A DNA stretch of 64,000 bases. It comes from Chloroflexota bacterium (lineage in GTDB: Bacteria; Chloroflexota; Chloroflexia; DAOUBH01). Under the pieces are notes generated by a model. That model did not search any database, was not told the DNA's origin, and saw only the letters and a list, made by a program, of their open reading frames with translations. Of the stretch, positions 7,346-61,259 are shown piece after piece; positions within the stretch are counted from its first letter, which is position 1; each line of letters opens with the position of its first letter. Location: assembly GCA_034432775.1 (NCBI GenBank), contig DAOUBH010000022.1, positions 27,170 to 91,169 of the forward strand, given 5' to 3'. Made by a program: the position numbers and the translations under genes.

Positions 7346-10023
<2,678 letters not shown>

Positions 10024-15061: not shown

Positions 15062-15082
15062 GACAAGGGGAGGGTACTTGCC

Positions 15083-15733
15083 GTGGCACGATGGGGAATG
15101 GCCATCGACCTCAGGAAATGCAACGGATGTCAGACGTGCACCGTAGCATGCAAGATCGAGAATTTCACCCCAAAGGGTTTGCTTTGGGGACAAGTTTACG
15201 ATTATGAGACCGGGCAGTATCCCACAGTCCAACGCCGCTTCCTTCCCGCCCTTTGTATGCACTGTGAAAGTCCGCCATGCAGAGACGTGTGCCCGACAGG
15301 CGCCACCAAAAAGAGAGAAGACGGAATCGTTTATGTCGATTATCAGAGGTGTACCGGTTGCCAGGCATGTGCCTTAGCCTGTCCGTACGAAGCGCGCTTC
15401 CTCTACACGGAACGGGATGGGTATTTTGACCGACGCAGAACCCCATACGAACAGTTCCCATACGAGTGGAGAGCACCATCGCAACGGTTTACGAACGGAA
15501 CCATGACGAAATGTACCTTCTGTATGCACCGGATAGATCAACACCCAAATAAGCGTCCAGGTATAGATCCGGAGGCCACACCTGCCTGCGTCGTTGCCTG
15601 TATCACCGGAGCACGGATCTTCGGTGATCTGGACGACTCAGAGAGCGAGATCAACAAGGTAATCCGGGAACGACGCGGCTTCACACTGCTGCCTGAGCTC
15701 GGGACTGGGCCTTCCGTGTATTACTTGCCCTAA
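15083..15733 (+). CDS. 4Fe-4S ferredoxin-type electron-transfer subunit of molybdopterin oxidoreductase
   Basis: Four Cys clusters: CNGCQTCTVACK, CMHCESPPCRDVCP, CTGCQACALACP, CTFCMH...CVVAC; GTG start 9 nt after GGAGG. Confidence 0.85.
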   Translation: MARWGMAIDLRKCNGCQTCTVACKIENFTPKGLLWGQVYDYETGQYPTVQRRFLPALCMHCESPPCRDVCPTGATKKREDGIVYVDYQRCTGCQACALACPYEARFLYTERDGYFDRRRTPYEQFPYEWRAPSQRFTNGTMTKCTFCMHRIDQHPNKRPGIDPEATPACVVACITGARIFGDLDDSESEINKVIRERRGFTLLPELGTGPSVYYLP

Positions 15734-15753
15734 AAGCGAAGCTCTAATAGGGT

Positions 15754-16605
15754 GTGTGGGAGGTAAAGGCAGTGATTTCCATCCATGGTCAGAGAAACTG
15801 GGGTTTCACGACAGCTCTGGCAATGTTCCTCGAGGGGAGCTGTGGCGCCACTACGGTAAGCGGAATACTTCTAGGCAATCTACCCATGGTAATACTTGGG
15901 GTAGCCCTCGGAATGGCAGCCGGCTTGATCCTTTTACTTGAGCTCGGAAATCCGAAAAATGCAATCTGGTTACTTGCAGGCATACGTCATGCTTGGATTT
16001 CGCGAGGTACTCTCCTACTACTGTTAGTCATTGTTTTTGGCCTTGCATACGCTCTCGTCGGCCTGCCAACTGTGGGCGCCCCGCCCGTCTTAAGCGTAGT
16101 CGCGGGTGTCACCGCTGGAATCGCAGGCCTCTTGCTGACACTGTACCCAGGGTTCCTGCTCGCTTCGTTCAAGCCCATACCGTTGTGGCATTCGGCCTTG
16201 TCGCCCATTCTCTCTTTCGGCATTAGCGCCCTAGGCGGTTTCGGCGTAACTTTGGTCATGTCCCCACTGGTAACTGTAAATGCAGTACAGATGACGATTC
16301 CTGCAGTGTCAGGTGCAGTGGTCTTTCAAGCCGTGGCGTGGTGGGCATTTATCGACACAGCGCTAAAAGGTAGCGTTACAGAATCCCACGGAGCTAGGGT
16401 GCTATTGGGGCTACCTGTCTTCTCAGCTGGGGCCATCGCGGTTGGCTTGGCATTACCTGGAGTAATCATGGTTTTAGCGTGGGCCGCAGGCGTTACATCA
16501 CTTCCGTTGTATGTCGTAGCAGGGGTATGTCTGCTTGCTGGAAGTCTAAGCGCTAGGTACGCCCTATTAAGGGCTGGTGTGCGATTGCGGTGGCAGCCGG
16601 CCTAG
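15754..16605 (+). CDS. integral membrane anchor subunit (NrfD/PsrC/DmsC-like) of molybdopterin oxidoreductase
   Basis: 283-aa protein with ~8 hydrophobic helices directly downstream of the catalytic and FeS subunits. Confidence 0.6.
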   Translation: MWEVKAVISIHGQRNWGFTTALAMFLEGSCGATTVSGILLGNLPMVILGVALGMAAGLILLLELGNPKNAIWLLAGIRHAWISRGTLLLLLVIVFGLAYALVGLPTVGAPPVLSVVAGVTAGIAGLLLTLYPGFLLASFKPIPLWHSALSPILSFGISALGGFGVTLVMSPLVTVNAVQMTIPAVSGAVVFQAVAWWAFIDTALKGSVTESHGARVLLGLPVFSAGAIAVGLALPGVIMVLAWAAGVTSLPLYVVAGVCLLAGSLSARYALLRAGVRLRWQPA

Positions 16606-38160: not shown

Positions 38161-38993
38161 TGGAGTTCCTGGGTACCGCAGGGGTAGTACTCGTCATAGT
38201 AATCTTCGCCGTCATGCTCCTCAGCTCATCTCTCAAAGTCGTTCAGGAGTACGAGCGGGGCGTAGTGTTCAGATTGGGGCGACTCATGGGAGCCCGAGGC
38301 CCGGGCCTTGTCATGATCATTCCTATCATTGAGCGCATGGTAAAGGTGGACCTGCGCATCGTAACAATGGACATCCCGGTGCAGGAGTGCATCACCAGGG
38401 ACAACGTAACCGTCAAGGTCAATGCCGTAGCCTATTTCAGAGTCGTGGACCCCAACAACGCGGTAGTGCGGGTGGCCGACTACTTCCGTGCCACAAACCA
38501 GATCGCTCAGACAACCCTTAGAGCCGTGCTGGGTCAATCAGAACTGGACGAGTTGCTGGCCCATAGAGAGCGCATTAACGAAAAGCTTCAGCGCATCATC
38601 GACGAGCAGACCGAACCCTGGGGAATTAAGGTCAGCATAGTAGAAGTGAAGGACGTAGAGCTTCCACAGACCATGCAGCGCGCCATGGCCAAGCAGGCAG
38701 AGGCAGAGAGAGAAAAGCGAGCCAAGATTATACACGCGGAAGGCGAGTACCAGGCTTCCAAGATGCTAGCCGAAGCGGCCGAAGTTATCTCCAGGAACCC
38801 TGTCACGGTGCAGCTCAGGTACCTCCAGACCCTCACAGAGATCGCATCCGAGCGGAATACAACCGTGGTATTCCCGTTGCCGATAGACTTGCTCAGACCG
38901 TTTTTGACGCACCTGGTACCCGCTGCACCCACTTCCGCTCCTGTAGCTGGGGGCAGCGACGGTGACCCCGCCGGCCCATCTCCTACCACCTAG
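38160..38993 (+). CDS. SPFH/band-7 (stomatin-like) protein
   Basis: N-terminal TM helix then [15 protein letters not shown]...[17 protein letters not shown] and coiled-coil tail. Confidence 0.85.
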
Positions 38994-39364
38994 GAGCTCT
39001 GGCCAGCAGCTATATCCCTCCCTCTAATGGACGACGGGCAACGGCCCTTTCCCAAAGGCTGGAATGCACCGTCTCCCTGGACTGCATCTCGCCAGCCTAA
39101 TCTGGCTCAACTTAAGTGGCGCCAGGGCGCCCCGCTTCGTGCAACTTGGCAGCCGGTCGCCTGTCTGCTACAGTCAGTCTTCGGATCCCGCTGCCCAATA
39201 TCTGCCATACATCTGATGGCTGGATGATGCGACGAGCTACAGCAGCTCTCAAACCTAAGCTGCCGGGGTACGGAATAGCTTCACCATGCTTTTGCCATAT
39301 AAGGTTGTCCGACCCCCCAGTGAAGGGTACAATTACCCCAGCTCCGGAGTACAATGCGACGGAA

Positions 39365-40165
39365 ATGGTGCCTATTATAGCTGTCGCCAACCAGAAGGGC
39401 GGCGTAGGCAAGACGACCACCGCTGTAAACCTAGCAGCCTGCCTTCAAGAGCAGGGCAACAGGGTGCTGCTGGTTGACCTTGATCCGCAAGGCAACGCTA
39501 CCAGCCACCTGGGCTTAGATAAGCATAGATATGGCCGAAACATCTACGACCTGCTGTTGGCCGAGCAACCCCACAGCAAACCGGTTGTGACCGTGCGCCG
39601 AGGCTTGGATATAGTTCCATCCAACGCCCACTTGGCAGGCGCCGAACTGGAGATGACCGCACTGCCCGACAGAGAATCGCGTCTCAAGGAACGCCTCTTT
39701 CCGTTGACCGAGGGCTACGATGTTGTCCTTATAGATTGCCCACCGGGTCTGGGCCTCTTAACGGTAAATGCCCTGGCGGCAGCCAGCCGCATCCTTGTAC
39801 CTCTTCAGTGCGAGTATCTAGCTCTCGAAGGCCTCACCCAGATTCAAGAAACCGTGCGATTAGTGCGCCGTAGGCTCAATCCCCAGGCCAGGCTATGGGG
39901 CATCTTGATGACCATGTACGACGGACGCACTAACCTGGCAGCGCAAGTAGTGCGCGAAGTACACTCGTACTTTTCCGACATTCTCTTCAATACCGTGATC
40001 CCGCGCAGCGTTCGCCTCAGCGAAGCCCCCAGCTATGGGATGTCCATCGTCGATTACGACCCTGGTTCCAGAGGCGCCCAGGCGTACCGTAACCTGGCCA
40101 AGGAAGTATTGGAGAGACTGAGTACAGAAGGGCTCTCCAATCTCAGGAGGATGCAACTTGCCTAA
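39365..40165 (+). CDS. parA: ParA/Soj partition ATPase
   Basis: Deviant Walker A VANQKGGVGKTTTAVNLA; LVDLDPQGNAT; ATG 39365 (track ORF from 39116 is upstream extension). Confidence 0.9.
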   Translation: MVPIIAVANQKGGVGKTTTAVNLAACLQEQGNRVLLVDLDPQGNATSHLGLDKHRYGRNIYDLLLAEQPHSKPVVTVRRGLDIVPSNAHLAGAELEMTALPDRESRLKERLFPLTEGYDVVLIDCPPGLGLLTVNALAAASRILVPLQCEYLALEGLTQIQETVRLVRRRLNPQARLWGILMTMYDGRTNLAAQVVREVHSYFSDILFNTVIPRSVRLSEAPSYGMSIVDYDPGSRGAQAYRNLAKEVLERLSTEGLSNLRRMQLA

Positions 40166-41015
40166 AGGCGGATTGGGCAGAGGACTTGACAGTCTTATTC
40201 CGGCTGGGGCTGGCGAAGTCCTGGAGGTACCTATCAATAGTATTGGCCCAAATCCTCGACAACCGCGCAAGGCAGTCGACCCAGCTAGCCTGCACGAACT
40301 GGCAGCCTCCATCTCTCGTTACGGAATCCTGCAGCCGCTGCTAGCAGTGCCTGTTTCGCCGAAGGTGGGTCCTTCGGCCATACGTTATCAACTCATTGCC
40401 GGGGAACGACGGCTGGAGGCAGCTAAGCTTGCCGGCCTGACCCGGGTACCCGTCTTGCTGCTCGAGGCTTCAGCCCAGGAGACTCTAGAGATAGCGCTCA
40501 TAGAAAACGTTCAGCGCCAAGAACTCACACCCTTGGAGGAGGCAGCCGCCTACTATCACCTTATCAACGACTTCGGCCTCACACAACAAGAAGTTGCAGC
40601 ACGCGTAGGCATAAGCAGAGCAGCTGTGGCCAACAGACTCCGCCTGCTGAACCTGCCCGAAAAGGTAAGGGATGCCCTTCAGGCCGGCCGCATCACGGAA
40701 GGGCATGCCAGGGCCCTCCTCGCCCTGGACACCGAACCTGCCCAGCTGGCCGTGCTTACACGCATTGAGCGAGAAGGTCTGAACGTCCGACAGACCGAAG
40801 AGCTTGTCCGGCGGTGGAGTACGAGGTCGGAATCCAAACCGTCTAAGCAGATACCCGACCCAGATATAGCGGCACTTGAAGCTAGGCTCAGCGAGGAGCT
40901 CGGCGCCCGTGCTACCCTCCGCCTGAACAAGCGCGGCGGTAGTCTGACCCTGCGCTTTGCATCCCATGACAGACTGTACCAGACCGTAGACCAAATCCTT
41001 CGTAACAGAGGGTGA
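40158..41015 (+). CDS. parB: ParB/Spo0J partition protein
   Basis: N-terminal GLGRGLDSLIP, ParB box LIAGERR, HTH region; TTG start overlapping parA stop. Confidence 0.9.
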   Translation: MPKGGLGRGLDSLIPAGAGEVLEVPINSIGPNPRQPRKAVDPASLHELAASISRYGILQPLLAVPVSPKVGPSAIRYQLIAGERRLEAAKLAGLTRVPVLLLEASAQETLEIALIENVQRQELTPLEEAAAYYHLINDFGLTQQEVAARVGISRAAVANRLRLLNLPEKVRDALQAGRITEGHARALLALDTEPAQLAVLTRIEREGLNVRQTEELVRRWSTRSESKPSKQIPDPDIAALEARLSEELGARATLRLNKRGGSLTLRFASHDRLYQTVDQILRNRG

Positions 41016-41019: not shown

Positions 41020-41712
41020 GTGAGCAAGGTTCGTAGACCCGTTCAGCAGCCAAAAGGCCGCGGTAGGAGCTCCATTGGTCCCTTATATGTGGCAGCAGCG
41101 GTGCTGATCGCCGTCGCCCTGGTCGGGGGCCTCATATTCTTCAGTACACCGCGCCCAACCCAGGTCCAGGACCTCACTGGCATTCCTTACCGCGGCACCG
41201 AGCTGGGCGATCCGAACGCTAAGGTCACAGTTACAGAGTATTCCGATTTTCGCTGACCATTCTGTGCCCGTTTCGCCCTAGGTGTGGGGCGGCAGATCAT
41301 AGAGGAATACGTTAGGTCAGGGAAGGTCAAATTCGTGTACCGCCAGTTTCCGGTACTGGGTCCGTCCTCGGTGGTCCTCGCCGAGGCCTCAGAATGTGCT
41401 GCTGACCAGGGAAAGTTCTGGCCCTTGCACGATGCCATCTTCGCCATAACGGCAGACGGAAGCGAGCCTCAGATACCTGCCGAAAGGATCAAACAGATTG
41501 CGTCGGGTCTGGGGCTGGTCATGACTACCTTCTCAGACTGCCTCGACAACCATAGGGCTCTGGATAGAGTCAACCAACAGTTGTCCGAAGGCCAGCAACG
41601 GGGAGTCCGCTCCACGCCCACCATATTCGTCAACGACCGTATGCTTGTGGGCCTACAAGATTACCAGACCTACAAGCAGGCTGTAGAGGAGCAGCTTGCT
41701 AAATCGAAATAG
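41020..41712 (+). CDS. DsbA-family thiol:disulfide oxidoreductase, candidate selenoprotein (in-frame UGA 41254-41256 at first position of CxxC)
   Basis: Same-frame ORFs joined by one TGA: ...EYSDFR-U-PFCARF...; downstream GKVKFVYRQFP, QGKFWPLHDAIF, GVRSTPTIFVND continue DsbA fold; N-terminal membrane anchor. Confidence 0.6.
41274..41291 (+). promoter_or_regulatory. candidate SECIS-like hairpin downstream of UGA
   Basis: cgccc-taggtgtg-gggcg stem-loop starting 18 nt after the UGA, G/U-rich loop; short stem, unverified. Confidence 0.3.
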
Positions 41713-51533: not shown

Positions 51534-51836
51534 TCACAGGAGACCTGGGATCTTCATACCGCCTGCGATGGAGCTCAGTTTCTTCGCAGCCAACTCCCTC
51601 GACTTTGCCAGGGCATCGTTCACGGCAGTGAGAATCAGATCTTCCAGCATCCCTGGATCCTCAGGATCCATCGCTTCCGGATCAATTTTGATGGAGACTA
51701 TGCTTTGCTGGCCATTAGCCACGACCGTAACAGCCCCTCCTCCTGAAGTAGCCTCCACCCGCTCCGAAGCCAGTTCCTCTTGTGCCTTTAGCACCCTGGC
51801 CTGCATCTGCTGCAGCAGTTTAATGTTGGGCTGCAT
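51534..51836 (-). CDS. YbaB/EbfC-family nucleoid-associated protein
   Basis: 100 aa; MQQMQARVLKAQEEL...SGGGAVTVVANGQQSIVSIKIDPE. Confidence 0.85.
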   Translation of the reverse strand: MQPNIKLLQQMQARVLKAQEELASERVEATSGGGAVTVVANGQQSIVSIKIDPEAMDPEDPGMLEDLILTAVNDALAKSRELAAKKLSSIAGGMKIPGLL

Positions 51837-51999
51837 CCCCTATCCTCCATCGCTTCTAAGGAGATTCTACTACGAGAAGGCATGCCTGATCAGAGCACCA
51901 TTCTGGAAACCGACCGGGCATGTGGGCAGAAACCCTAAGAGGGCAACACTACCCTATGTACTTAGCCAGACCTGCGCCCAGCACATCTGGGACCTATGG

Positions 52000-53007
52000 T
52001 TAGACGATCACGTCCTCCTCACTGCGGGAGATCACGATCTCCTCCGCTTCATCCAGCCGCCGCACAACGTTCACAATGCGCTGCTGGGCTTCCTCCACCG
52101 ACTTAAGCCTCACGGGCCCCGAAAGAGCAATCTCCTCCTTCAACATTTCGGCCGCGCGGCTAGACATATTGCGGAAGACCTTTTCCTTGAGGTCCTCCCC
52201 AGCCGCCTTGAGAGCCAGGGCCAGGTCCTTGCTGTCCACCTCCCTGAGCACCCTCTGAAGGGACCTATCGTCCAGTTTCACCAGGTCGTCGAAAGTGAAA
52301 AGAAGTTTCCTGACCTGTTCTGCCAGATCTGGATCTCTTTCTTCCAGGCGCATGAGGATGGCCTTCTCCGTGGCCCGGTCCACCCGGCTCAGCAATTTGG
52401 CCACCTGCTCGATCCCGCCCACCGAAGAGTACTCATCTGCTATCAACAGCGACATCTTGTCCTGCAGAACCCGCTCTACCTCCCTCACAATATCGGGAGA
52501 AGTGCGATCCATGGTAGCCATCCGTGTCACAACGTCAGCTTGAAGGTCGTGATCGAGTGCCGCCAATATGGCACTAGCAGTGGTGGGCGGAAGATGGGCC
52601 AACACCAAGGCTATGGTCTGGGGATGCTCGTTTTGCAAGAAACTTACGACGCTCGAAGGATCGGTCTTCCTCACGAAATCGAAGGGCATCGGGCGCCTGA
52701 GGTTGGTTATGCGCCCAATGAGCTCTTCGGCCCTCTCCTTTCCCACAGCTTTTTCCAGAAGTTCGCGGGCATACCCGGCGCCCCCTACGGAAAGATACTG
52801 CTGGGTTACAGACATGTGGAAGAACTCTTCCAGTACCCTCTCCCGAATCTCGTCAGGCACCTTGTCCATGCGGAATATCTCCATGGTAAGGCGTTCGATG
52901 TCTGTGTCTCGAAAATGCTTGAGCACCTGGGCCGACGCCTCGGGCCCAAGGGCTATGAGCAGTGCTGCCGCCTTCTGAATGCCCCTTAGAGACGATTGGC
53001 TAGCCAT
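52000..53007 (-). CDS. fliG: flagellar motor switch protein FliG homolog
   Basis: 336 aa from ATG 53007 (GGAGG upstream); GIQKAAALLIALGPE, EHPQTIALVLAHLPP, C-terminal MSSRAAEMLKEEI. Confidence 0.75.
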   Translation of the reverse strand: MASQSSLRGIQKAAALLIALGPEASAQVLKHFRDTDIERLTMEIFRMDKVPDEIRERVLEEFFHMSVTQQYLSVGGAGYARELLEKAVGKERAEELIGRITNLRRPMPFDFVRKTDPSSVVSFLQNEHPQTIALVLAHLPPTTASAILAALDHDLQADVVTRMATMDRTSPDIVREVERVLQDKMSLLIADEYSSVGGIEQVAKLLSRVDRATEKAILMRLEERDPDLAEQVRKLLFTFDDLVKLDDRSLQRVLREVDSKDLALALKAAGEDLKEKVFRNMSSRAAEMLKEEIALSGPVRLKSVEEAQQRIVNVVRRLDEAEEIVISRSEEDVIV

Positions 53008-53312
53008 AGCTGGTGCCTCCGCCACATACCCATTCGCCGAAGTTGATTGCAGTTCAATCCCCATGGTACCAATCGACGCACAACGTCTAAAGCACCACAG
53101 GTACTTGTGGACCGGGTACCGAGGTACCCCATTCACCGCGAGTTGCCGGCCTTCCCCACCAAAACTCAGTAAAGCGAAAACCCACGCTCCGCCTAACTTG
53201 AGAAGGCTGCTATAATGGCCGCAAAGCCGGCGGGGCTTCAGAGCTGGTTTAAAGGGAGGATGGCTAGCTGAAAACGCGGGCCATTGTACCATTCGTGGGA
53301 GTCTTCGCCGTT

Positions 53313-53858
53313 ATGACTGGTCTAATCGTCTCCACTGTAATGCCTGCCATGGCCTTCGACCCTGCTGACCCTGCGATGGAGCGCGTCTGGCAGCGCTACG
53401 ACAAACCCATCGTGGATGGCGTCGCCTCCAACCGCTCTTGGATGTGGGGCCCCAACCCGAACACCGCCGGGATCTTCGACCCCTACGCAGAAAGCCCTGG
53501 CGGTCAAAGGCTCGTCCAGTACTATGGTAAGAGCCGCATGGAAATCAACAGGACCGACATAACAGACCCCAACCACCCGTGGTACGTCACCAACGGGTTG
53601 CTCAGCGTAGAACTGATCACAGGTCGTATTCAGAAAGGGAACGCCACCTTCGAAGACAGAGGCTGCGGTGCCGCTATACCCGTAGCCGGCGATCCAACCA
53701 ACACGTGGCCGACCTACCGGGGTCTTCAGGGGCGCATCAATACGACCGGCATGGGAGCTGCAGACCGAACTGGCCAGTATGTCACAGGAGTCCTGAACCC
53801 CGATGGGAGTACCTCGCCTTATCCCGGGGGCAACGACCCAGGGGCCCAGCTAGTCTAA
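53313..53858 (+). CDS. hypothetical secreted protein (possibly 5' part of a disrupted longer gene)
   Basis: Signal peptide MTGLIVSTVMPAMA-FDP; no known motif. Confidence 0.4.
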   Translation: MTGLIVSTVMPAMAFDPADPAMERVWQRYDKPIVDGVASNRSWMWGPNPNTAGIFDPYAESPGGQRLVQYYGKSRMEINRTDITDPNHPWYVTNGLLSVELITGRIQKGNATFEDRGCGAAIPVAGDPTNTWPTYRGLQGRINTTGMGAADRTGQYVTGVLNPDGSTSPYPGGNDPGAQLV

Positions 53859-53907
53859 CTACGACACAAACCTCGGTCACAATATCCCCAAGGCCTTCTG
53901 GGACTTC

Positions 53908-54765
53908 ATGCATGCAACGGGTACTATCTTCTCCAATGGAAGCTACCTAACGGCTTCACCCTGGTTCGACTGGGTATTCGTCATGGGTCCACCCATCGGC
54001 GAACCCTACTGGGCACTGGTGAAGGTAGGCGGCGTGGACAAATGGGTACTTTTCCAGCCCTTCGAACGTCGGGTACTCACTTACACTCCATCCAACCCCG
54101 ATCCCTGGAAGGTGGAGATTGGCAACATTGGGCAGCACTACTACCGCTGGCGCTATGAAGGAGTAGGTGCCACCTGCCCTGGTCCTAGCGCAACCCCCAC
54201 ATCTTCCCCAACGCCTACGGCAACACCGTCCCCGACAACTGTCTACGACTTCGTAGCTAGGGCTGACCACGCATCATGGTCTAGCGGCACCGGAAAGACG
54301 CAGCAGCACACCCTCCCCTTCCCAGGTTCAGACGTGGACAGCCGCGGCTTTGCCCTCTGGCGGACCCCAGCCACAATGGAGAATGGCTCTTCCGTATCCA
54401 GATGCCTCGAGACTCATCCCAAGTGGGTAGACAACGGTTTCATCCTGGGAACCTATACGGAGCTCTACTCGCCCATAGGTTAGACTGTCAACCCCAAGGA
54501 CCGCTTCCAGGCTAGGGCGGGCCTGCTGCAGGGAGCGGCCGCGGGCAACGTTCGCTTCAAAGTCATGATCCGTCCCGAAGGTGGACCAAACCAATGCGTC
54601 GTAGACATAATCGATGGCTACGGTGACGGGCTGAAGACTATGGACGTGGGCCTCGCCAGTTGGTCTGGCAAGAAGGCCGACTTCATCCTGGAGGTGGAAG
54701 CCAACGGGTCCTCGGGTCAGGACTGGGCATGCTGGACATCAGCTGCAATCGTCCGATACCCCTGA
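53908..54765 (+). pseudogene. hypothetical protein, coding frame continues through in-frame TAG at 54481-54483
   Basis: ORF 53908-54483 and 54484-54765 share one frame with coding-like codon use across the amber codon; Pro/Thr/Ser linker PSATPTSSPTPTATPSPTT. Confidence 0.35.
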
Positions 54766-54812
54766 TATCAAGGCAATAGCAATACGGCCTATCTCGTGCC
54801 CAACCTTCAAAG

Positions 54813-54831
54813 CCGTTGAATCCGACAACGG
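54813..54831 (+). terminator. candidate stem-loop (ccgttg-aatccga-caacgg) at convergent junction
   Basis: 6-bp perfect stem followed by GGATATTTGG. Confidence 0.25.
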
Positions 54832-54964
54832 GGATATTTGGACCCTGCTACTATTACCCCAATGACTCCAGGTCGGTCAAGACCCGTAGCGATCCGAAGG
54901 CAAGGCACATCAACCTATTCTGTCTCCAATACCTGGCACAAGGCTTCTGACAGAAGGACGTCGC

Positions 54965-55771
54965 TCAGCCAGATACCTTCCTGTAGAAGCAGGTCCTATA
55001 AGGCACCAGGCCCAATGCCCTCGGGGTTAGCAATATCTCTGTAGAACCCACAAAGAGGAAGCCCCCTGGTTTCAGTGAGGCCACGAAGCCTCTGTACACC
55101 CGGTCCTTCGCCTCAGGCGTAAAGTAGATCACGACGTTTCGACATACTATAAGATCGTAGGGCCCCCCATAAGGATCCCTCAAGAGATCGTGTTCCTTGA
55201 ACTTAACTTTGGTGCGCAAACGATCGCTAACCCAGTATGACCCCCGTCGCACCTCGAGATAATCGGAAAGGAACCTCTGAGGCACATTTCTTATGCATGT
55301 ATAGGAATACGGTCCCCCTGCCCGGGCGATCTGAAGGACCGAAGAGTCCACATCTGTAGCGAGGATGCTGTACCTAGCTTGCGGGTTGTGAGCATCGAGG
55401 AGCATGGCCAGGCTGTAAGGTTCCGCACCTACAGAACACCCTGCCGACCACACGCCTATGGAACCCGAACCTTCCAGCAGTACTGGAATGACCTCGTCTT
55501 CTAAGATTCGGTACTTCTCAGGGTCTCGGAAGAACTCACTTACGTTGATGGTGAGGAAATCCCGAAAGGCAGCACGCTGGCCGACATCCGACGCCAATTT
55601 CGAAGCTAGCTCATCGAGCGACCTCAAACCGTTTCTCGCAAGGTAGCCTTCCAACCTTCTCACCAGCTGGGACTCTCTGTAGCCCGACAGGTCTATCCCT
55701 AGGAGTGTGAGCACATCCCGCTGGAAACGCTTCAATTCTGTGCGTGCGACAGTTACCTGGCCACTGCCCAT
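54965..55771 (-). CDS. cheR: chemotaxis protein methyltransferase CheR
   Basis: SAM-binding VWSAGCSVGAEPYSLAM; 268 aa. Confidence 0.9.
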   Translation of the reverse strand: MGSGQVTVARTELKRFQRDVLTLLGIDLSGYRESQLVRRLEGYLARNGLRSLDELASKLASDVGQRAAFRDFLTINVSEFFRDPEKYRILEDEVIPVLLEGSGSIGVWSAGCSVGAEPYSLAMLLDAHNPQARYSILATDVDSSVLQIARAGGPYSYTCIRNVPQRFLSDYLEVRRGSYWVSDRLRTKVKFKEHDLLRDPYGGPYDLIVCRNVVIYFTPEAKDRVYRGFVASLKPGGFLFVGSTEILLTPRALGLVPYRTCFYRKVSG

Positions 55772-56793
55772 GATGCAAGCTCTACAAGCCTTTCAGCAAT
55801 TCTTGGCAACGGAACGACCTCGTCGGCAGCCCCAGCCTCTATGACGCTCCTCGGCATGCCGAAGACAACGCAGGTGGATTCGTCTTCCGCCAACACCTTC
55901 CCCCCTGCTCTGTGGATGGCCCTGGCCCCCTCTGCTCCGTCATTTCCCATGCCCGTCAGTACAGCAGCTACCGTCCTTCCACCGTAGTAGGATGCCAACG
56001 ATAGGAAAGTTACATCCACCGAGGGCCGAACGCCGTGGACCTTCGGTCCGCTTTCGAGGCGAACACGTCCCCTATCCACCACTAGGTGGATATCCCCCGG
56101 CGCCACGTAAACCTGCCCAGTCCGCAGCTCCTCGCCATGGGCTGCCTCCACTACTGGCAATGAAGAGGCCGCATCCAGGCGCTGGGCCAGTGCCCGTGTA
56201 AAGCCGGATGGCATATGTTGCACCACAACAACAGCGCAAGGAAGATCTCGGGGCAAGTGCGGGATCACCTCGTACAGTGCCCTTGGACCACCTGTAGAAG
56301 CTCCAATGGCTACCACGGCTTCGGCCGCGAGTCCAAGGCCGGGCGTAGACGCAAACGGTTTGCTTTCCGCCCTACGGACCGGCGTCTTATGCAGCCTGCT
56401 TCGAGCCGCGGCCTTAACTTTGGCAATGAGATCCTCGCCTAGAGTGACAATGCCCATGGCAGAACCATTCTGCGGCTTCGCTATGAAGTCCACCGCCCCC
56501 AACTCAAGAGCCCTAAGGGTCACTTCGGCACCTTCCCTGGTGTGGGAACTCAGCATAACCACAGGGGTGGGTCTATGTTCCATGATGCGTGCCAAGGCTT
56601 CCAAGCCGTCCATCACTGGCATATCCACGTCCAGAGTGACGACATCGGGCGCAAGGCTGATCACCTTTTCGACCGCCTCGGCCCCATTGGCTGCCGTATC
56701 CACCACCTGGATCTGCCGATCAGCCCCCAGGCGCCTGGATATGGCGTAGCGGATGAACGCCGAGTCGTCCACAACTAGAACCCGTACCCCCAT
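55753..56793 (-). CDS. cheB: chemotaxis response regulator protein-glutamate methylesterase CheB
   Basis: REC domain VLVVDDSAFIR then methylesterase domain IGASTGGPRAL. Confidence 0.9.
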   Translation of the reverse strand: MGVRVLVVDDSAFIRYAISRRLGADRQIQVVDTAANGAEAVEKVISLAPDVVTLDVDMPVMDGLEALARIMEHRPTPVVMLSSHTREGAEVTLRALELGAVDFIAKPQNGSAMGIVTLGEDLIAKVKAAARSRLHKTPVRRAESKPFASTPGLGLAAEAVVAIGASTGGPRALYEVIPHLPRDLPCAVVVVQHMPSGFTRALAQRLDAASSLPVVEAAHGEELRTGQVYVAPGDIHLVVDRGRVRLESGPKVHGVRPSVDVTFLSLASYYGGRTVAAVLTGMGNDGAEGARAIHRAGGKVLAEDESTCVVFGMPRSVIEAGAADEVVPLPRIAERLVELASWAVAR

Positions 56794-56795
56794 CC

Positions 56796-57152
56796 TCAGC
56801 CCACCATTTTTTTGACCGCTGCCAACACCCGCTGAGGCTCGAAGGGCTTGAGGACAAAGTCTTTCGCACCGCGCTTGAGCGCCTCGATGACCATGGCCTG
56901 CTGACCCATGGCCGTGACCATAGCGACACGCGCGGAAGGGTCAAGCTCCCTTATCGCTTTGAGAGCCTCTAAACCGTCCATATCGGGCATGGTGATGTCC
57001 ATAAGCACGGCATCGGGACGGATCTCCTGGTAGAGCTTCACAGCCTGGAGGCCATTCTCCGCCTCCACCACTTCGTAGCCGTGCTCCTTCAAAAGCCGTG
57101 AGCAACGCATCCGCATGAAGGCAGCATCGTCGACAATCATGATCCTCGCCAT
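56796..57152 (-). CDS. cheY: chemotaxis response regulator CheY
   Basis: 118-aa stand-alone REC: IMIVDDAAFMR...VLMDITMPDMDG...KDFVLKPF. Confidence 0.9.
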   Translation of the reverse strand: MARIMIVDDAAFMRMRCSRLLKEHGYEVVEAENGLQAVKLYQEIRPDAVLMDITMPDMDGLEALKAIRELDPSARVAMVTAMGQQAMVIEALKRGAKDFVLKPFEPQRVLAAVKKMVG

Positions 57153-57167
57153 AGTCCCTCCCAGATT

Positions 57168-57668
57168 TCAGATCTCCTTCGGAATTCCGTTGGCAGTCTT
57201 CACCAACATGATGCCAGTAGACGGGTCGAAACGTACGGTACGTGCGTGCCTGCCCCCTACGTCCTTACCTAGCACAGGCACGGCATTGGCATCCAACACC
57301 CGGAGGACTGCTTCTACATTGCGTTGGCCAACTTCCATCTGTTTACCCGCCAGCGGGCCAAGGTCGAGAAGTTTGGCTCCCCCTGAGAGCTTTGCCCTGA
57401 TCCCCGATGCCGGCACGCCCAGGTCCACAAGCATCTTTTTCAGGGTTTCCACCGCCACATCCGCATATTTCCCTGGCATGGATACGGGCCCTGTCCCATT
57501 GGATGGCAACAAGATATGGGCCATCCCGGCCACACCGAGCAGGGCATGGTACATCACCAGCGCCACGCAGGAACCCAGGCCGTATGCGACCAATATCTCA
57601 CCGGGCGCCTGGGCCAGCTTGACCTCACCGATGCCAACCTCTATCTGCACCGGCCTCATAGTAGACAT
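57168..57668 (-). CDS. cheD: chemoreceptor glutamine deamidase CheD
   Basis: 166 aa; LGSCVALVMY with catalytic Cys. Confidence 0.85.
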   Translation of the reverse strand: MSTMRPVQIEVGIGEVKLAQAPGEILVAYGLGSCVALVMYHALLGVAGMAHILLPSNGTGPVSMPGKYADVAVETLKKMLVDLGVPASGIRAKLSGGAKLLDLGPLAGKQMEVGQRNVEAVLRVLDANAVPVLGKDVGGRHARTVRFDPSTGIMLVKTANGIPKEI

Positions 57669-58270
57669 CGCTCCCTCATTTTGGACATCAGGTTGGCACT
57701 GGGCACCACGAGGAACACCCCAGCCATGCTTCGCTGGCCTTCGCCGAAGAGCGATCTCGCCATCAACACCCTGTCGTTGGCAATGACACCGTGGAATACC
57801 GCCTCACCCAGCATGGCCCCACTCATGTCGCATACCACTGCCGGAGGTGCGCAGGGCATACCCAAGCCCAGCATATCCGCCATATGTCCTACAAAGCTCC
57901 CGGCCATTACATTGCCCACTTCGGCCAGGGCAGATGCTTCTAGAGGGTCGAGGGCCATCATGTCGTGGCATGGCCTATCTAACAGCAGCTCGAGCAAGCT
58001 GGAGACACTGTCTGGAGGTAGAAGTAGCACGACCAAACAACTCCCTTGCCCATAAAAGAAGACATACACCCCTAAAGCAGGAGCCTCGGGGCTGCCCAGC
58101 ATATGCGACAGGTCACTCAGCGGAAGCTCCTCGAGCTTGAACTCCACCACATCGAGGTTCTTTCCGATCATGGCCGACAAAGACCCCAGCGCCCGCTGGA
58201 AAGCCCCGGCCATAAGCCTCTCGAGACTTTCGACTTCTCTGGCACCAATGAAGCCCTCATGGATCAACAT
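57656..58270 (-). CDS. cheC: CheC-like CheY-P phosphatase
   Basis: 204 aa; CheC/FliY-type ASALAEVGNVMAGS (E-x2-N) motif. Confidence 0.65.
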   Translation of the reverse strand: MLIHEGFIGAREVESLERLMAGAFQRALGSLSAMIGKNLDVVEFKLEELPLSDLSHMLGSPEAPALGVYVFFYGQGSCLVVLLLPPDSVSSLLELLLDRPCHDMMALDPLEASALAEVGNVMAGSFVGHMADMLGLGMPCAPPAVVCDMSGAMLGEAVFHGVIANDRVLMARSLFGEGQRSMAGVFLVVPSANLMSKMRERCLL

Positions 58271-60303
58271 CTAACAACCTCCATGGCCTTCGGTTCGGCA
58301 GTCATAGCGGCGGTCCTGAGGATGCTCCCAGCATCGAGGATGAGACCAACAGTTCCATCCTCCAGGATGGTAGCTCCCGAGACGCAGCTCATGTGAGTCA
58401 ATGGCACATCCAGGCTCTTAATAACTACCTCCTGGTTCCCTATCAGGGCATCCACCTTCATGGCCAGCTGGCGTCCACCTAAGTTCATCACCACAATCCA
58501 AACCTCCCTATCGCGCAGGTGTACAGTCGGCCTGCCGTGCAAGAGATCGTCCAGATCCACCAACGGGAGTGTCGCCCCGCGGTAGTCCGTTATTAGCCTG
58601 CCACCGAAGTAATGAAGGGCATCTACGGGTATCTTCATAACTTCTCGCACAGCTGTGAGAGGAATGGCGTAAGTGGTGTCCTTGGCCGACACGAGCAAAG
58701 CGTTGACTATGGCTAGGGTCAGGGGAAGTCTGAGTTCCACCTCCGTTCCCCTACCAGGCTCCGAGTGGAGCGACACCGTGCCATTCAGCCTCTCTATGTT
58801 CGATCTGACCACATCCATGCCAACACCGCGGCCAGATACCTCGGTAACTTTCGACGCTGTGGAGAACCCAGGTCTGAAGACAAGGTCCAACAGCTCATCC
58901 CTTCCCATCCTCTGGGCCATTTCCGGATTTATCAACCCCTTGACCAGTGCCGTTTTCCTCACCTGCTCTACGTCTATCCCTCGACCATCGTCCTCAACAC
59001 GGATGACGATCTGTCCCTCCTCGTGGCAGGCGACCAGCCTTATAGTGCCCCTCTCAGGCTTTCCGGCAGCCGATCTGACTTCAGGAGGCTCGATCCCGTG
59101 ATCCACGGCATTTCTCAGAAGATGTATCAGGGGATCCCCCACTCCCTCGATCACAGTGCGGTCCAGTTCAGTCTCCTGGCCTTCAATGACCAAGTCCACC
59201 TTTTTGCCACTCTTTATGGCCAGATCCCGAACCATACGAGGAAACTTGCTGAAGACGGTCCCTATAGGCACCATGCGACTCCGGGTAACTTCGAGATGCA
59301 GTTCTTCCGTAACACGTGCCATCTGCGTCGCCGCGTCCAGAAGGTCGCCCGCGGTGCCATCAGAACCCATCTCTTCTGCTATTTGAGCCCCAATACGGCT
59401 CAACCGCGTTCTCAGGATCACCAGCTCGCCCACCAAATTCATCAGGTTATCGAGCCGCTCCAGATCGATCCTGACAGTTCGTGCCAAACGCGCGGGCCTA
59501 TCAAGGTTGTCGCCACGAGGAGATATGGGCACAGCCTCATGGCCATCCGGCGCCCCTTCTCCGGCTCCCGTGTTAGCTTCGGCAGCCTTTACAGCTTCTA
59601 TCGACAACTCGTCGATCTCGTCGACCTGCTTGAGGGCCTCCCTTAAATCCTCAGGAGCAAGGTCAGTGGCTACATACATCACCAGTGCGTGGCCAACCTT
59701 CTGGGACTCGATGTCATCAAGTGAGGGAATAGAGGCTACGAGCTCGCCTCTTGCCATGGCCTCCAGGCAGAGCTGGAGTTGGCGGGCGGCGACGAAACTG
59801 CTGTCCCGGGAGACACGGGCTGCCACCTTGTAGAGCCGTCGGCCCTCCGACAGATACACTTCGATGCTGGCTCTCTCCAGGGCCGTAAGCTGATGATCCA
59901 CCCTCTTTGGAGAGCCCAACATCCTGCGAAGCGAGGCCACCAGGTCATCTGAAGAGGGTAGGGAAGTGCCTCCGACGATGGCTTCTCTCATTTCCCTCAG
60001 TTTGTCGAGAGAAGCCAGCAGACTGCTGACCACTTCGGATGTCAGTGAGAGTTGCCCTTGCCTCAGATAGTCTAAAACCTCTTCCATGGCATGGGCCAGC
60101 TGGGCCATGGGTACAACCCCTGCCAGACCAGCCGAACCCTTTAGGGTGTGGGCAGCCCTGAAGACCCGGTTAAGCAGCTCGGGTTCAATCCCCACTTCCT
60201 CCATGCGGAGGAGGTCCTCGTCGAGGGCTTGCATATGCTCGTCCAGTTCAGCTAGAAATAGGGCTAGCTCTTCAGCAGAAAGTCCTTCCATTGATACCGC
60301 CAC
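58264..60303 (-). CDS. cheA: chemotaxis histidine kinase CheA
   Basis: Hpt HTLKGSAGLAG, dimerisation and HATPase (DDGRGID, GRGVGMD) domains, C-terminal CheW-like domain; 679 aa. Confidence 0.9.
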   Translation of the reverse strand: MAVSMEGLSAEELALFLAELDEHMQALDEDLLRMEEVGIEPELLNRVFRAAHTLKGSAGLAGVVPMAQLAHAMEEVLDYLRQGQLSLTSEVVSSLLASLDKLREMREAIVGGTSLPSSDDLVASLRRMLGSPKRVDHQLTALERASIEVYLSEGRRLYKVAARVSRDSSFVAARQLQLCLEAMARGELVASIPSLDDIESQKVGHALVMYVATDLAPEDLREALKQVDEIDELSIEAVKAAEANTGAGEGAPDGHEAVPISPRGDNLDRPARLARTVRIDLERLDNLMNLVGELVILRTRLSRIGAQIAEEMGSDGTAGDLLDAATQMARVTEELHLEVTRSRMVPIGTVFSKFPRMVRDLAIKSGKKVDLVIEGQETELDRTVIEGVGDPLIHLLRNAVDHGIEPPEVRSAAGKPERGTIRLVACHEEGQIVIRVEDDGRGIDVEQVRKTALVKGLINPEMAQRMGRDELLDLVFRPGFSTASKVTEVSGRGVGMDVVRSNIERLNGTVSLHSEPGRGTEVELRLPLTLAIVNALLVSAKDTTYAIPLTAVREVMKIPVDALHYFGGRLITDYRGATLPLVDLDDLLHGRPTVHLRDREVWIVVMNLGGRQLAMKVDALIGNQEVVIKSLDVPLTHMSCVSGATILEDGTVGLILDAGSILRTAAMTAEPKAMEVVRC

Positions 60304-60330
60304 ATCGTGTTAATCTGACGTTTCGTCCCA

Positions 60331-60789
60331 TCAAGCTACTTGGGCAACAGCCAGAACCTCATCTTTCTCCGGCTGCGATAGGATACTGTCCAGGTCGGCA
60401 AAGATCACGAGTCTTTCGTCGAGACGGATAATACCCTTTAGATACCTGGTTTCCGACGTGGCCACCAGATCGGAAGGCTTCTCCACCATATCTTCCGTGA
60501 ACCGTAACACCTCCGTCACCGCGTCCACCGCCATGCCAATGGTTCTGCCGTCGAACACAATCACCATAATGCGGCCTGATGCAGCGTCTACAGATCCGGG
60601 CAGCCCCAAACGACGTCTGAGGTCGATTACAGGAACAACCTTTCCCCGCAGGTTCAAGACCCCCATCACGAAGTCCGGGCTGCCAGGAACCTGAGTTATG
60701 CGCTGCATACGTATGATTTCCTGCACTTTTGATATCTCCACCCCGTAGTGTTCCCCAGACAATGTGAAAACTACCAGCTGACCGTCCAT
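60331..60789 (-). CDS. cheW: chemotaxis coupling protein CheW
   Basis: 152 aa; LVVFTLSGEHYGVEISKVQEI...VLNLRGKVVPVIDLR. Confidence 0.9.
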   Translation of the reverse strand: MDGQLVVFTLSGEHYGVEISKVQEIIRMQRITQVPGSPDFVMGVLNLRGKVVPVIDLRRRLGLPGSVDAASGRIMVIVFDGRTIGMAVDAVTEVLRFTEDMVEKPSDLVATSETRYLKGIIRLDERLVIFADLDSILSQPEKDEVLAVAQVA

Positions 60790-60794
60790 GACCT

Positions 60795-61259
60795 CTAAGC
60801 CTCCTGTACTGCGAGATGTATCTCGAAGGTTCCAAATTCGCCTTCCAGAGGTACTACAAGCCGCCTAGGGGCCAGCGTGGAAATGCGAGTCGGACCGTTG
60901 CCGTTGACGATGGCCGGTGGCGATATCTGAAAGGGCCAACCAGACTTGGCCAACCATGTGGCAGCCCTACCCGTAATCACATTACCCAGTTCCGCTATCC
61001 CACTGAGCCCAAGTTCGTCCAGCTCGGTGACGGTCTCCCCCGACATTGCCGACAGAACCTTCAACGCAGCCTGCTTGTCTACGGTGTAGATGGCTAGCCC
61101 CTCCAATTTGCCTGTCATGCCGACCACTACGCCAACTCCATGGGAAGCGATGGGCCCTGCCTCCACCCGCGGCATACCCATACTCACATCCGACCCTGTT
61201 TCGGCCGTCAAAACTGTCTTGGCAGCATTCAAGAAGGCGTTTACCACTTCAGCCCGCAC
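60795..61259 (-). CDS. cheX: CheX/CheC-family CheY-P phosphatase
   Basis: 154 aa; LSGIAELGNVITG (E-x2-N) motif. Confidence 0.65.
   Translation of the reverse strand: MRAEVVNAFLNAAKTVLTAETGSDVSMGMPRVEAGPIASHGVGVVVGMTGKLEGLAIYTVDKQAALKVLSAMSGETVTELDELGLSGIAELGNVITGRAATWLAKSGWPFQISPPAIVNGNGPTRISTLAPRRLVVPLEGEFGTFEIHLAVQEA

Follow-up and report, generated by a model that had tools for sequence, protein, structure and literature searches.

Gene organization at the locus

The region described here lies immediately downstream of parB in the window, by which is meant the whole 64-kb stretch of DNA that was analysed. It contains two open reading frames (ORFs), 41020–41256 and 41284–41712, which are in the same frame and whose sole intervening stop is the TGA at 41254–41256. 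Translation through this codon yields ...VTVTEYSDFR-*-PFCARFALGVG..., and direct reading of the sequence and its translation bears out an earlier note, which had described two same-frame ORFs split by one TGA. Gene callers split the gene wherever calls are available: into ORFs of 78 and 125 aa in the public metagenome-assembled genome, and into 78 aa plus 125–133 aa in each orthologous public assembly with gene calls.

The start codon is GTG 41020, and orthologues have ATG at the equivalent place. The AGAGGG sequence, the parB stop (TGA, 41013–41015), the 4-nt gap and the GTG all lie where the earlier note had put them. The Pfam matches on which the parB assignment draws were found on the identical parB of locus L094 and on parB orthologues. 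From the 4-nt gap, which is conserved, but among close relatives only, the dsbA-like gene is probably on the same transcript as parAB. The features of the locus are collected in Table 1.

Table 1. Features of the dsbA-like locus, with positions in the window
Feature	Position	Strand	Remarks
parB	40158..41015	+	immediately upstream, 4-nt gap; ORF list and Pfam ParB_N, HTH_ParB
AGAGGG, Shine–Dalgarno-like	41007..41012	+	within the 3' end of parB; 7 nt separate it from the GTG; read from the sequence
dsbA-like selenoprotein gene (candidate)	41020..41712	+	230 codons including one putative Sec-UGA, plus TAG stop
N-terminal membrane anchor (putative)	41080..41142	+	approximately residues 21–41, PLYVAAAVLIAVALVGGLIFF; inspection of the translation
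In-frame UGA, read as selenocysteine (candidate), residue 79	41254..41256	+	aligns with an invariant Cys; TGA kept in orthologues
Active-site motif U-P-F-C (Sec79-Pro80-Phe81-Cys82; Sec candidate)	41254..41265	+	aligned with C-P-S-C of BdbD and C-P-F-C of DsbA chain 4pwp
SECIS-like hairpin	41273..41292	+	8-bp stem UCGCCCUA/UGGGGCGG, GGUG apical loop; folding
Cys126	41395..41397	+	invariant column in alignment A2
Cys174	41539..41541	+	invariant column in alignment A2
Thr199-Pro200, cis-proline loop	41614..41619	+	invariant; aligned with TP of BdbD (ATPTIYVND against STPTIFVND)

Protein family and domain architecture

Sequence comparison identifies the predicted product as a BdbD/DsbA-like thiol:disulfide oxidoreductase of 230 residues, with a putative membrane anchor. 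The best Pfam match is to Thioredoxin_4 (PF13462; E 7e-34, residues 62–223, 117.8 bits against a cutoff of 23.2), and this match crosses the TGA, covering both sides of it, so that the DsbA fold does continue downstream of the codon as had been claimed. DSBA (PF01323) comes second (E 1e-17, 64.7 bits; cutoff 25.6). The closest solved relative by sequence is Bacillus subtilis BdbD (3eu3; E 3e-19, alignment over residues 61–226), and alignment to 3eu3 and 4pwp suggests that the protein adopts a thioredoxin fold into which a helical domain is inserted. Among the ORFs of the window that were scanned, the only DsbA-family oxidoreductase recognised is the one restored by merging the two ORFs.

In the alignment of homologues the columns of residues 79 and 82 are invariant as Cys, and that of Pro80 is nearly so. 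In known DsbA and BdbD structures, the CxxC sits at the N-terminus of helix 1. It is the cis-Pro loop of the thioredoxin fold, represented here by Thr199-Pro200, that packs against this site. The second pair of invariant cysteines, Cys126 and Cys174, probably forms a structural disulfide.

The N-terminus has six Arg or Lys in residues 3–16, followed by a hydrophobic stretch of approximately 21 residues, which on inspection fits the membrane anchor proposed in the earlier note. The putative anchor is conserved as protein in orthologues although synonymous sites are saturated. It would place the catalytic domain outside the cytoplasm. There is no Cys among the first 78 residues, and consequently no lipobox Cys; the protein is therefore not a lipoprotein.

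The in-frame UGA in homologues and orthologues

The residue-79 column is an invariant Cys in 36 aligned homologues. At the 80 genome loci compared, it is occupied by Cys in 76 and by TGA in three, while one locus (L086) is without the CxxC motif; the distant homologues that carry TGA at this column, L015, L027 and L042, are all from Chloroflexota. Thus, when the gene is aligned with Cys- and Sec-containing DsbA-like homologues, a comparison that the earlier note had suggested, the UGA column has Cys as its partner and the two constitute a Sec/Cys pair. Among orthologues, the TGA is kept in L001/L091/L092, L002–L004, L005 and L094. Three other orthologue lineages, ~80% identical, keep it (seven further assemblies or contigs), and the records are FWWL01000212.1, FWWM01000288.1, three JGI metagenome contigs, one Logan assembly and GCA_964583015.1.

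One base change is enough to turn TGY into TGA and the source is a metagenome-assembled genome, so that the gene could be taken for a pseudogene with a nonsense mutation, or the TGA for a sequencing or assembly error in place of TGT or TGC. This has next to no probability and is effectively refuted, as the identical TGA is found across four lineages that are ~80% identical in protein (window/L094, L001, L002–L004 and L005), in separately assembled public records between whose lineages synonymous sites are saturated. The divergence among the assemblies therefore also rules out a common contaminated reference. Two further observations, described below, also speak against it: both flanks of the codon are under purifying selection, and the hairpin that follows it shows synonymous conservation.

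Between pairs of orthologues, pS is 0.59–0.85, while pN is 0.16–0.24 upstream of the TGA and 0.08–0.11 downstream. Both flanks are under purifying selection despite saturated synonymous sites. Over codons +1 to +9, which span the distance from the TGA to the first possible restart at GTG 41284, pN = 0 and pS reaches 0.55; these nine codons, PFCARFALG, vary synonymously only and are therefore translated.

This has direct consequences for the arrangement that the gene callers report, in which the TGA is a genuine stop and the locus encodes a 78-residue membrane peptide plus a DsbA-like domain, truncated at its N-terminus and lacking the CxxC, whose start codon is GTG 41284, 27 nt past the stop. 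A restart at this GTG would leave the nine preceding codons untranslated, contrary to their pattern of substitution, and the thioredoxin-fold match starts 17 residues upstream of the TGA. Strong purifying selection acts on the downstream part, although a domain deprived of its first beta-strand and its active site would have no function. Furthermore, the alignment of TGA with Cys is seen again in three unrelated lineages. The earlier note had raised the prospect that homologues might resolve into two independent genes at this junction; instead, both the homologous domain and the selection span the TGA. Continuity of the gene across the codon is directly supported, and two separate genes are very improbable.

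The relatives that were found are either close or distant. A scan of GTDB species-representative contigs returned no close relative, the best match being only 46% identical, and the lineage is therefore absent from the species representatives searched. A DNA scan of metagenome contigs for EYSDFR-TG[A/C/T]-PFC recovered TGA forms on the FWWL and FWWM contigs only, plus four unrelated Cys forms, and provided no orthologues of intermediate divergence with which covariation could be followed. Close Cys homologues, P0006 and P0007, are 45–48% identical. Across the DsbA homologues of Chloroflexota, Sec forms are scattered among Cys forms, the four Sec lineages are each nearest to Cys forms, and the hairpins of these four lineages are unlike in sequence and spacing. 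This distribution fits repeated switching between Cys and Sec within the group.

A SECIS-like hairpin follows the UGA

Directly after the UGA, the transcript can fold into a hairpin in which U41273–A41280 pairs with U41285–G41292 to give 8 bp, closed by the GGUG loop at 41281–41284. The spacing from UGA to loop is 24 nt, and the folding energy is –12.0 to –12.7 kcal/mol. The hairpin of the earlier note is real, and only its extent needs correction, as the span given there (41274–41291) is the inner 7 bp of the stem. Published criteria for a bacterial SECIS element are a loop of 3–9 nt with a G at one of its first two positions, an upper stem of 4–16 bp, a spacing of 16–37 nt and an MFE of –7.5 kcal/mol or below (PMC13188914). 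When these are applied by folding, the window hairpin lies within all of the limits.

Further support for a function of this element came from the orthologues. Here, 6 of the 8 hairpin codons are identical in four orthologues, compared to 26 of 113 elsewhere in the gene (p = 0.0027). Restricting the comparison to codons of fourfold or greater degeneracy, 4 of 6 are unchanged in the hairpin against 6 of 55 outside it (p = 0.0018). Only two stem substitutions were seen, both of them one-sided exchanges of G and A opposite U, which convert G-U to A-U pairs. True compensatory double changes were not seen among the orthologues, because all of these are close to each other.

The stability of the window copy is only modestly unusual (z = –1.9, with 10 of 200 shuffles as good), and of the 76 Cys-form homologues, 8 have a comparable hairpin after their first Cys codon. 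The weight of the hairpin therefore rests on its position, loop sequence and synonymous conservation and not on stability. A hairpin that satisfies the model at –12 kcal/mol or below is present in 6 of 7 Sec forms versus the same 8 of 76 Cys forms. Among the distant Sec forms, L027 falls short of the strict requirement for a 4-bp upper stem, and L015 is an ambiguous case. Rfam scans, at gathering and at permissive thresholds, matched no SECIS family; their one match, to DicF, is due to chance and lies on the other strand.

Decoding of the UGA

In the window, TGA is the commonest true stop. Of the 46 ORFs that reach 250 codons or more, 24 end in TGA, and one of these is parB, which lies four bases upstream of the gene. 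This bears on the idea that the organism translates UGA as Trp or Gly under genetic code table 4 or 25, in favour of which only the in-frame UGA itself can be cited. Such a code is refuted by stop-codon usage and its likelihood is vanishingly small. No other pair of long same-frame ORFs with a TGA between them looked like coding sequence when the whole window was scanned. Moreover, GyrB is ~70% identical to that of Thermomicrobium and other Chloroflexota, which places the organism in Chloroflexota, and we know of no sense-UGA code in this phylum.

The machinery for Sec insertion was sought in the window and around related loci. ARAGORN detected only tRNA-Ser(CGA) and no tRNA-Sec in the 64-kb window, and no counterpart of E. 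coli SelA, SelB, SelD or YqeB was detected there by tblastn; the flanks of the orthologue loci likewise gave no tRNA-Sec and, in tblastn, no SelA, SelB or SelD. The window does encode YqeC (TIGR03172, 171 bits; cutoff 73). YqeC without YqeB is an unreliable marker of selenium use (PMC5029168), and its presence in a window where YqeB is absent is only a hint of selenium use. Elsewhere in Chloroflexota, L022 and L024 each carry a tRNA-SeC at a distance of 4–8 kb from the Cys-form homologue, and selD adjoins a Cys-form homologue in L082.

It follows from the comparative evidence that the codon is translated, and this evidence does not by itself prove which residue is inserted. The UGA might be recoded or read through to give a residue other than Sec, either by leakage of a near-cognate tRNA for Trp or Cys or by a SelB/SECIS-like system that delivers Cys. 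UGA followed by C is a weak termination context, and the UGA is followed by C in all seven TGA forms. In addition, tRNAs of the "ReC" type with a UCA anticodon could be part of a Cys-charged, SelB/SECIS-like system, and the absence of genes for the Sec machinery from the window and the orthologue flanks agrees with such a view. Several observations speak against it and make it improbable. Both the spacing of the hairpin and its apical loop, which begins with G, are defining features of a SelB-binding SECIS, and Trp at residue 79 would inactivate the enzyme. The tRNA-SeC and selD genes are present at related Chloroflexota loci, and the nearest curated protein family, which is from the same phylum, is explicitly one of (seleno)proteins. 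Finally, the recoded site is exactly the catalytic Cys, the position where known selenoproteins as a rule form Sec/Cys pairs (PMC1088965). The narrower proposal, that the hairpin drives recoding of UGA to a non-Sec residue, through Cys delivery of the SelB/SECIS type or selenium-independent read-through in a lineage without canonical selA, selB and selC, is quite improbable. Were this true, the hairpin would represent a type of recoding signal of which no example among extracytoplasmic oxidoreductases has so far been described.

A candidate selenoprotein and its proposed mechanism

The Sec/Cys pair, the conserved TGA, the selection on its flanks, the hairpin and the ordinary use of TGA as a stop elsewhere in the window support the proposal of the earlier note that the locus encodes a candidate DsbA-family selenoprotein with Sec first in the CxxC. 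Very probably, 41020–41712 is a single gene for a BdbD/DsbA-like protein in which Sec, inserted at the UGA, serves as the nucleophile of U79-P-F-C82. By analogy to the standard bacterial Sec pathway, which is the basis of the mechanism proposed here, we infer that the UGA is decoded by SelB and tRNA(Sec). During translation, the hairpin at 41273–41292 would act as a bacterial SECIS element and bring SelB-GTP and Sec-tRNA(Sec) to the ribosome, so that UGA would be read as Sec and not as stop. The protein would then be held in the membrane by its N-terminal anchor with the catalytic domain outside the cell. Here, the mature enzyme, acting as an oxidase or as an isomerase/reductase, would carry a U79–C82 selenenylsulfide that is exchanged with cysteines of exported proteins, much as BdbD and DsbA perform the equivalent exchange with a disulfide. 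Under a shortage of selenium or of the machinery, translation would stop at the UGA and produce a 78-residue membrane peptide.

BdbD is an extracytoplasmic thiol oxidase of the monoderm B. subtilis and works with a membrane partner, BdbC. The window ORFs that were scanned include no gene of the BdbC, DsbB or VKOR type. The window protein resembles BdbD (3eu3) in that C-P-S-C aligns with U-P-F-C and in that the TP cis-Pro loop and the overall domain align. It differs in having a second invariant Cys pair (C126 and C174) and, as a candidate, in using Sec where BdbD uses Cys. The neighbourhoods of the distant Sec forms L027, L015 and L042 have no redox-partner gene in common: L027 is near a TlpA/AhpC-like thioredoxin and Lgt, L015 is near a DUF411 gene, and nothing recognisable adjoins L042.

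Relation to known selenoproteins

DsbA-like proteins are among the commoner bacterial selenoprotein families. Form 1 (PF01323, UxxC) was first recognised in the Sargasso Sea metagenome by Zhang, Fomenko & Gladyshev in 2005 (PMC1088965), and Peng et al. (2016) counted 45 DsbA-like selenoproteins in 41 bacterial genomes (PMC5029168). A DsbG-like selenoprotein is attributed to Kryukov & Gladyshev (2004), as cited in PMC13188914. Both UxxC families, DsbA-like and DsbG-like, are established (PMC1088965, PMC13188914, PMC5029168), and reviews describe them as identified bioinformatically (PMC13188914). We found no report in the literature of the biochemical characterisation of any natural Sec-DsbA.

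The window protein and DsbA-like form 1 have in common the DsbA-type thioredoxin fold, the UxxC motif and a SECIS hairpin with a G in its loop just after the UGA. In both, Cys homologues are widespread and what is known of the family comes from sequences. Form 1 is defined on COG2761/PF01323, whereas the window protein scores best on PF13462, with PF01323 second. As DsbA-like selenoproteins have been known since 2004–2005, the window gene would add a membrane-anchored member of the BdbD type, and it does not overturn current understanding. Merging two ORFs that are meaningless on their own restores the DsbA-family enzyme of the window and flags the organism as a likely user of selenium. A compact, conserved gene with close Cys homologues is also a reasonable test case for the role of Sec in extracytoplasmic disulfide exchange.

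The window hairpin agrees with the E. coli fdhF and fdnG SECIS elements and with the bSECISearch consensus in being a stem-loop within the coding region directly after the UGA. With the general consensus it shares a small loop that begins with G followed by G or U, a spacing of 16–37 nt and an MFE below –7.5 kcal/mol. In contrast to the fdhF and fdnG elements, no bulged U is evident in the window hairpin, and no sequence similarity to them was seen, nor was any expected.

The best NCBIfam match is NF041057, the "Rcas_1661 family thioredoxin-like (seleno)lipoprotein" (E 5e-46), whose locus tag we take to be that of Roseiflexus castenholzii, a member of Chloroflexota. The alignment covers the whole catalytic domain (residues 62–224 against model positions 84–246), with a score of 157.2 bits that is below the 190-bit cutoff. 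Orthologue L001 (159.3) and the single-domain Sec forms L027 (150) and L042 (169) also score below it. The UxxC motif is common to NF041057 and the window protein, and the two differ at the N-terminus, as NF041057 is a lipoprotein family whereas the window protein appears to have an uncleaved anchor. Unlike the window protein, L042, L015 and L082 have lipobox-like motifs ending in AC or GC.

Reading frame and catalytic domain

Read directly from the sequence, the gene occupies one frame from GTG 41020 to TAG 41710–41712, in which the sole internal stop is TGA 41254–41256. The read-through translation is MSKVRRPVQQPKGRGRSSIGPLYVAAAVLIAVALVGGLIFFSTPRP...AKVTVTEYSDFR-*-PFCARFALGVGRQIIEEYVRSGKVKFVYRQFP...RGVRSTPTIFVND...AKSK, where the asterisk is the UGA. 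The earlier note had described same-frame ORFs split only by this TGA, with GTG 41020 lying behind AGAGGG and 4 nt after the parB stop, and the sequence agrees with it in both respects. The 4-nt gap between parB and the dsbA-like gene, which is kept only among close relatives, suggests co-transcription with parAB.

Profile matching of the 230-residue protein, with Cys put in place of the stop, gave Pfam Thioredoxin_4 (PF13462; E 7e-34) over residues 62–223, a match that therefore crosses residue 79, and DSBA (PF01323; E 1e-17). Of the solved structures, Bacillus subtilis BdbD (3eu3; E 3e-19, residues 61–226) is the best match; its C-P-S-C aligns with the *-P-F-C of the window protein and its cis-proline "TP" with T199-P200. 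Alignment with 36 database homologues shows C79 (the UGA position), C82, C126, C174, T199 and P200 among the invariant columns, and this places the UGA, as had been proposed, at the first Cys of the CxxC motif of a DsbA-family protein. This is one gene, with a DsbA/BdbD-type catalytic domain and a UGA at the catalytic Cys position. C126 and C174 probably form a structural disulfide.

By inspection, the N-terminus consists of a positively charged segment followed by approximately 21 hydrophobic residues with no cysteine. The segment resembles a membrane anchor, as the earlier note had proposed, more than a lipoprotein signal, and the catalytic domain would then be on the outer side of the membrane, a predicted topology.

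Features of the locus and UGA-containing relatives
Feature	Location or source	Strand	Motif or basis
AGAGGG	41007–41012	+	7 nt 5' of GTG 41020
parB stop TGA	41013–41015	+	read from sequence
Hairpin	U41273-A41280 / U41285-G41292, loop G41281-G-U-G41284	+	folding
TGA-bearing orthologue	FWWL01000212.1 (L001, L092)		junction translation
TGA-bearing orthologue	FWWM01000288.1 (L091)		junction translation
TGA-bearing orthologues	three JGI metagenome contigs (L002–L004)		junction translation
TGA-bearing orthologue	Logan assembly (L005)		junction translation
TGA homologue L015	Anaerolineae MAG		*PYC
TGA homologue L027	Thermoflexales MAG		*PFC
TGA homologue L042	Chloroflexi MAG		*PYC

Conservation of the UGA and translation across it

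A protein search returned three short matches of 131–133 residues that are 79–81% identical to the C-terminal part of the window protein. The synteny common to their contigs is parA-parB-[74–76 aa ORF]-[131–133 aa ORF]-plsX(-)-gyrB(-). When the orthologue junctions were translated across, all read ...TEYSDFR-*-PFCARFALGVGRQI..., every one with TGA. A GyrB search also located a region matching the window in GCA_964583015.1 (CAZOUK010000003.1, 212,607 bp, or its 212,654-bp twin); here, 1 of 7926 bases differs, the TGA is identical and the gene has been called as two pieces of 78 and 125 residues. GyrB neighbours at approximately 70% identity are Chloroflexota, including Thermomicrobium. On these comparisons, the UGA is conserved and not accidental.

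In the orthologous contigs alone, a gene for an FAD oxidoreductase of the DAO family separates the Band_7 gene from parA (L001 6742–7878; L002 6692–7837). There is no space for one in the window (38993–39400), which indicates a small indel, the synteny being conserved otherwise.

Among the three full-length orthologue lineages, pS is 0.59–0.85, which is near saturation, and pN is 0.16–0.24 5' of the UGA and 0.08–0.11 3' of it. The first possible restart codon 3' of the TGA is GTG 41284, and the nine codons between the two, P-F-C-A-R-F-A-L-G, have a pN of 0 with pS up to 0.55. As these codons are the remainder of the active site, the segment is translated as protein, and both flanks of the UGA are translated. 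Two independent genes at this junction in homologues, the outcome that the earlier note had set against its own reading, are ruled out by the purifying selection on the nine codons ahead of GTG 41284. A decaying pseudogene is ruled out by the pN of 0 in codons carrying the rest of the active site. A third alternative, a reassigned genetic code, is excluded because TGA is an ordinary stop that ends 24 of the 46 window ORFs with 250 codons or more, including parB four bases upstream, and because a scan of the window found no other coding-like pair of long same-frame ORFs joined by TGA.

A candidate SECIS element

The hairpin reported 3' of the UGA is real, the 41274–41291 first assigned to it being the inner 7 bp only. 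The bacterial SECIS consensus comprises an apical loop of 3–9 nt, an upper stem of 4–16 bp, a G at one or both of the first two loop positions, usually then G or U, a UGA-to-loop spacing of 16–37 nt and an MFE of -7.5 kcal/mol or lower (2026 review, PMC13188914). The window hairpin fits the whole of it, with a 4-nt GGUG loop, an 8-bp stem, a spacing of 24 nt and -12.0 kcal/mol for the bare stem-loop, so that the SECIS position proposed for it is upheld. In a shuffle test, z was -1.9 for the window copy and -4.5 for an orthologue copy. Hairpins of -12 kcal/mol or lower were present in 6 of 7 Sec forms versus 8 of 76 Cys-form homologues, the latter scored by identical rules 3' of the first Cys codon; counted by independent lineage, 3 of 4 Sec lineages have one (Fisher p = 0.007). 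By itself, stability is weak evidence for a SECIS element.

Stronger evidence comes from constraint at silent sites, for which codons with an identical amino acid in all four orthologues were used. Under the hairpin, 6 of 8 such codons are nucleotide-identical, against 26 of 113 outside (binomial p = 0.0027), and at codons of fourfold or higher degeneracy the counts are 4/6 and 6/55 (p = 0.0018). Only two differences occur in the stem among orthologues, both G to A opposite U, converting G-U to A-U; there is no double compensatory change, the orthologues being too close to provide one. The UGA and the SECIS-type hairpin are both conserved. The distant Sec forms have hairpins of their own, non-homologous to that of the window: in L042 the loop is CGUGA with a spacing of 21, in L027 it is CGUGC with a spacing of 26 and an upper stem of only 3 bp, and in L015 the hairpin is ambiguous. 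No Rfam model matched the window hairpin.

Six successive codons near the 3' end of the gene (Y-Q-T-Y-K-Q, 41662–41679 (+)) are also nucleotide-identical in 4/4 orthologues, against a saturated synonymous background. These are mostly two-fold degenerate, so that codon bias may explain their identity and a second constrained element need not be invoked.

Sec and Cys forms across the family

When one genome per GTDB species was scanned, 80 homologous loci with 31–46% identity were obtained, in Chloroflexota, candidate-phyla bacteria, DPANN archaea, Magnetococcales and others. At the aligned position 76 loci have CxxC and three have TGA; L086 lacks the motif and has CPYS. The four Sec lineages form no group of their own, and the nearest relatives of each are Cys forms. 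L027, for example, is 68–69% identical to three of these. P0006 and P0007, which by BLASTP are the nearest non-orthologous relatives of the window protein (45–48% identical), have CPFC and a similar membrane anchor. Such interspersion is the usual signature of a selenoprotein family.

UxxC selenoproteins, "DsbG-like" and "DsbA-like", were reported in 2004–2005, with nine DsbA-like sequences and one DsbG-like sequence in Sargasso Sea data (PMC1088965). DsbA-like proteins, of which 45 were counted in 41 genomes, are one of the commoner selenoprotein families of bacteria (PMC5029168). The best NCBIfam match is NF041057, "Rcas_1661 family thioredoxin-like (seleno)lipoprotein" (157 bits, cutoff 190). 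In contrast to this lipoprotein family, the window protein has no lipobox; it would work like the family without being a member by the NCBI criterion. The cutoff is also missed by orthologue L001 (159 bits) and by the other Sec forms with a single domain, L027 (150) and L042 (169); L015 (324) exceeds it only because it has two tandem domains.

The L015 protein (7490–8857 (+); Anaerolineae MAG HyVt-591, DRQW01000207.1) is a lipoprotein whose tandem DsbA-like domains have TGA-P-Y-C in the first and C-P-F-C in the second, the TGA being in the first only. The top-scoring database matches to the window protein, P0001 and P0003, are Cys-only two-domain proteins of approximately 400 aa.

Selenium genes

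Neither a tRNA-Sec in the 64-kb window nor homologues of SelA, SelB or SelD in the window or the orthologue flanks were found. In the product of ORF 4838–6175 (-), YqeC (171 bits to TIGR03172, "selenium cofactor biosynthesis protein YqeC"; cutoff 73) is fused with a MocA-like molybdenum-cofactor cytidylyltransferase domain that scores 155 bits, short of its cutoff of 186. The selenium-dependent molybdenum hydroxylase trait has two marker genes, of which YqeC is one. The window has no YqeB, and near the fusion there is no YqeB, selD or xanthine-dehydrogenase-type enzyme; YqeC alone is only a hint of selenium use.

In the Chloroflexota MAG loci L022 and L024, a tRNA-SeC lies 4–8 kb from Cys-form homologues. 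L082 (304–2147), from an Oscillochloris MAG, has a Cys-form DsbA-like lipoprotein gene tail-to-tail with a clear selD, whose product shares 40% identity with E. coli SelD. The DsbA family may be loosely linked to selenium genes in Chloroflexota, or this may be coincidence. At about 10000–18500 in L022 and L024, a PurM/SelD-like gene, approximately 25% identical to E. coli SelD, adjoins the Cys-form homologue.

Proposed mechanism

The finding is real, and the selenoprotein reading very probably holds, as a well-supported candidate. By the established bacterial pathway, SelB with Sec-tRNA(Sec) would bind the hairpin and Sec would be inserted at residue 79. The anchored, extracytoplasmic enzyme would then cycle between a U79-C82 selenenylsulfide and the reduced selenol/thiol, in exchange with substrate cysteines. 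Under selenium limitation, translation would stop to leave a 78-residue peptide. Of the window ORFs scanned, none was recognised as DsbB, VKOR, BdbC or CcdA, and no common partner gene was seen beside the distant Sec forms. A specialist would not be surprised by the gene, as the UxxC DsbA-like kind is already known; its use is in annotation correction and possibly as a model for Sec versus Cys in extracytoplasmic disulfide exchange.

Other features of the window

A three-gene set at 12182–16605 (+), with no in-frame TGA seen, includes a 959-aa molybdopterin (bis-PGD) oxidoreductase with only weak similarity to PhsA/QrcB/ArrA, each scoring far under its cutoff, a 4Fe-4S dicluster protein (15083–15733) and a 283-aa ORF without a family match. 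The set resembles a divergent molybdoenzyme complex bound to the membrane. A complete chemotaxis cluster (CheR, CheB, CheY, CheD, CheC-like, CheA, CheW and CheX) lies with FliG at 52000–61259, in a genome placed in Chloroflexota by GyrB. The 473-aa ORF 51568–52989 (+), which overlaps fliG on the opposite strand and is without a family match, is probably spurious. Finally, 3635–3897 (-) encodes a large (Alu-domain-containing) bacterial SRP RNA (Rfam RF01854, 195 bits).
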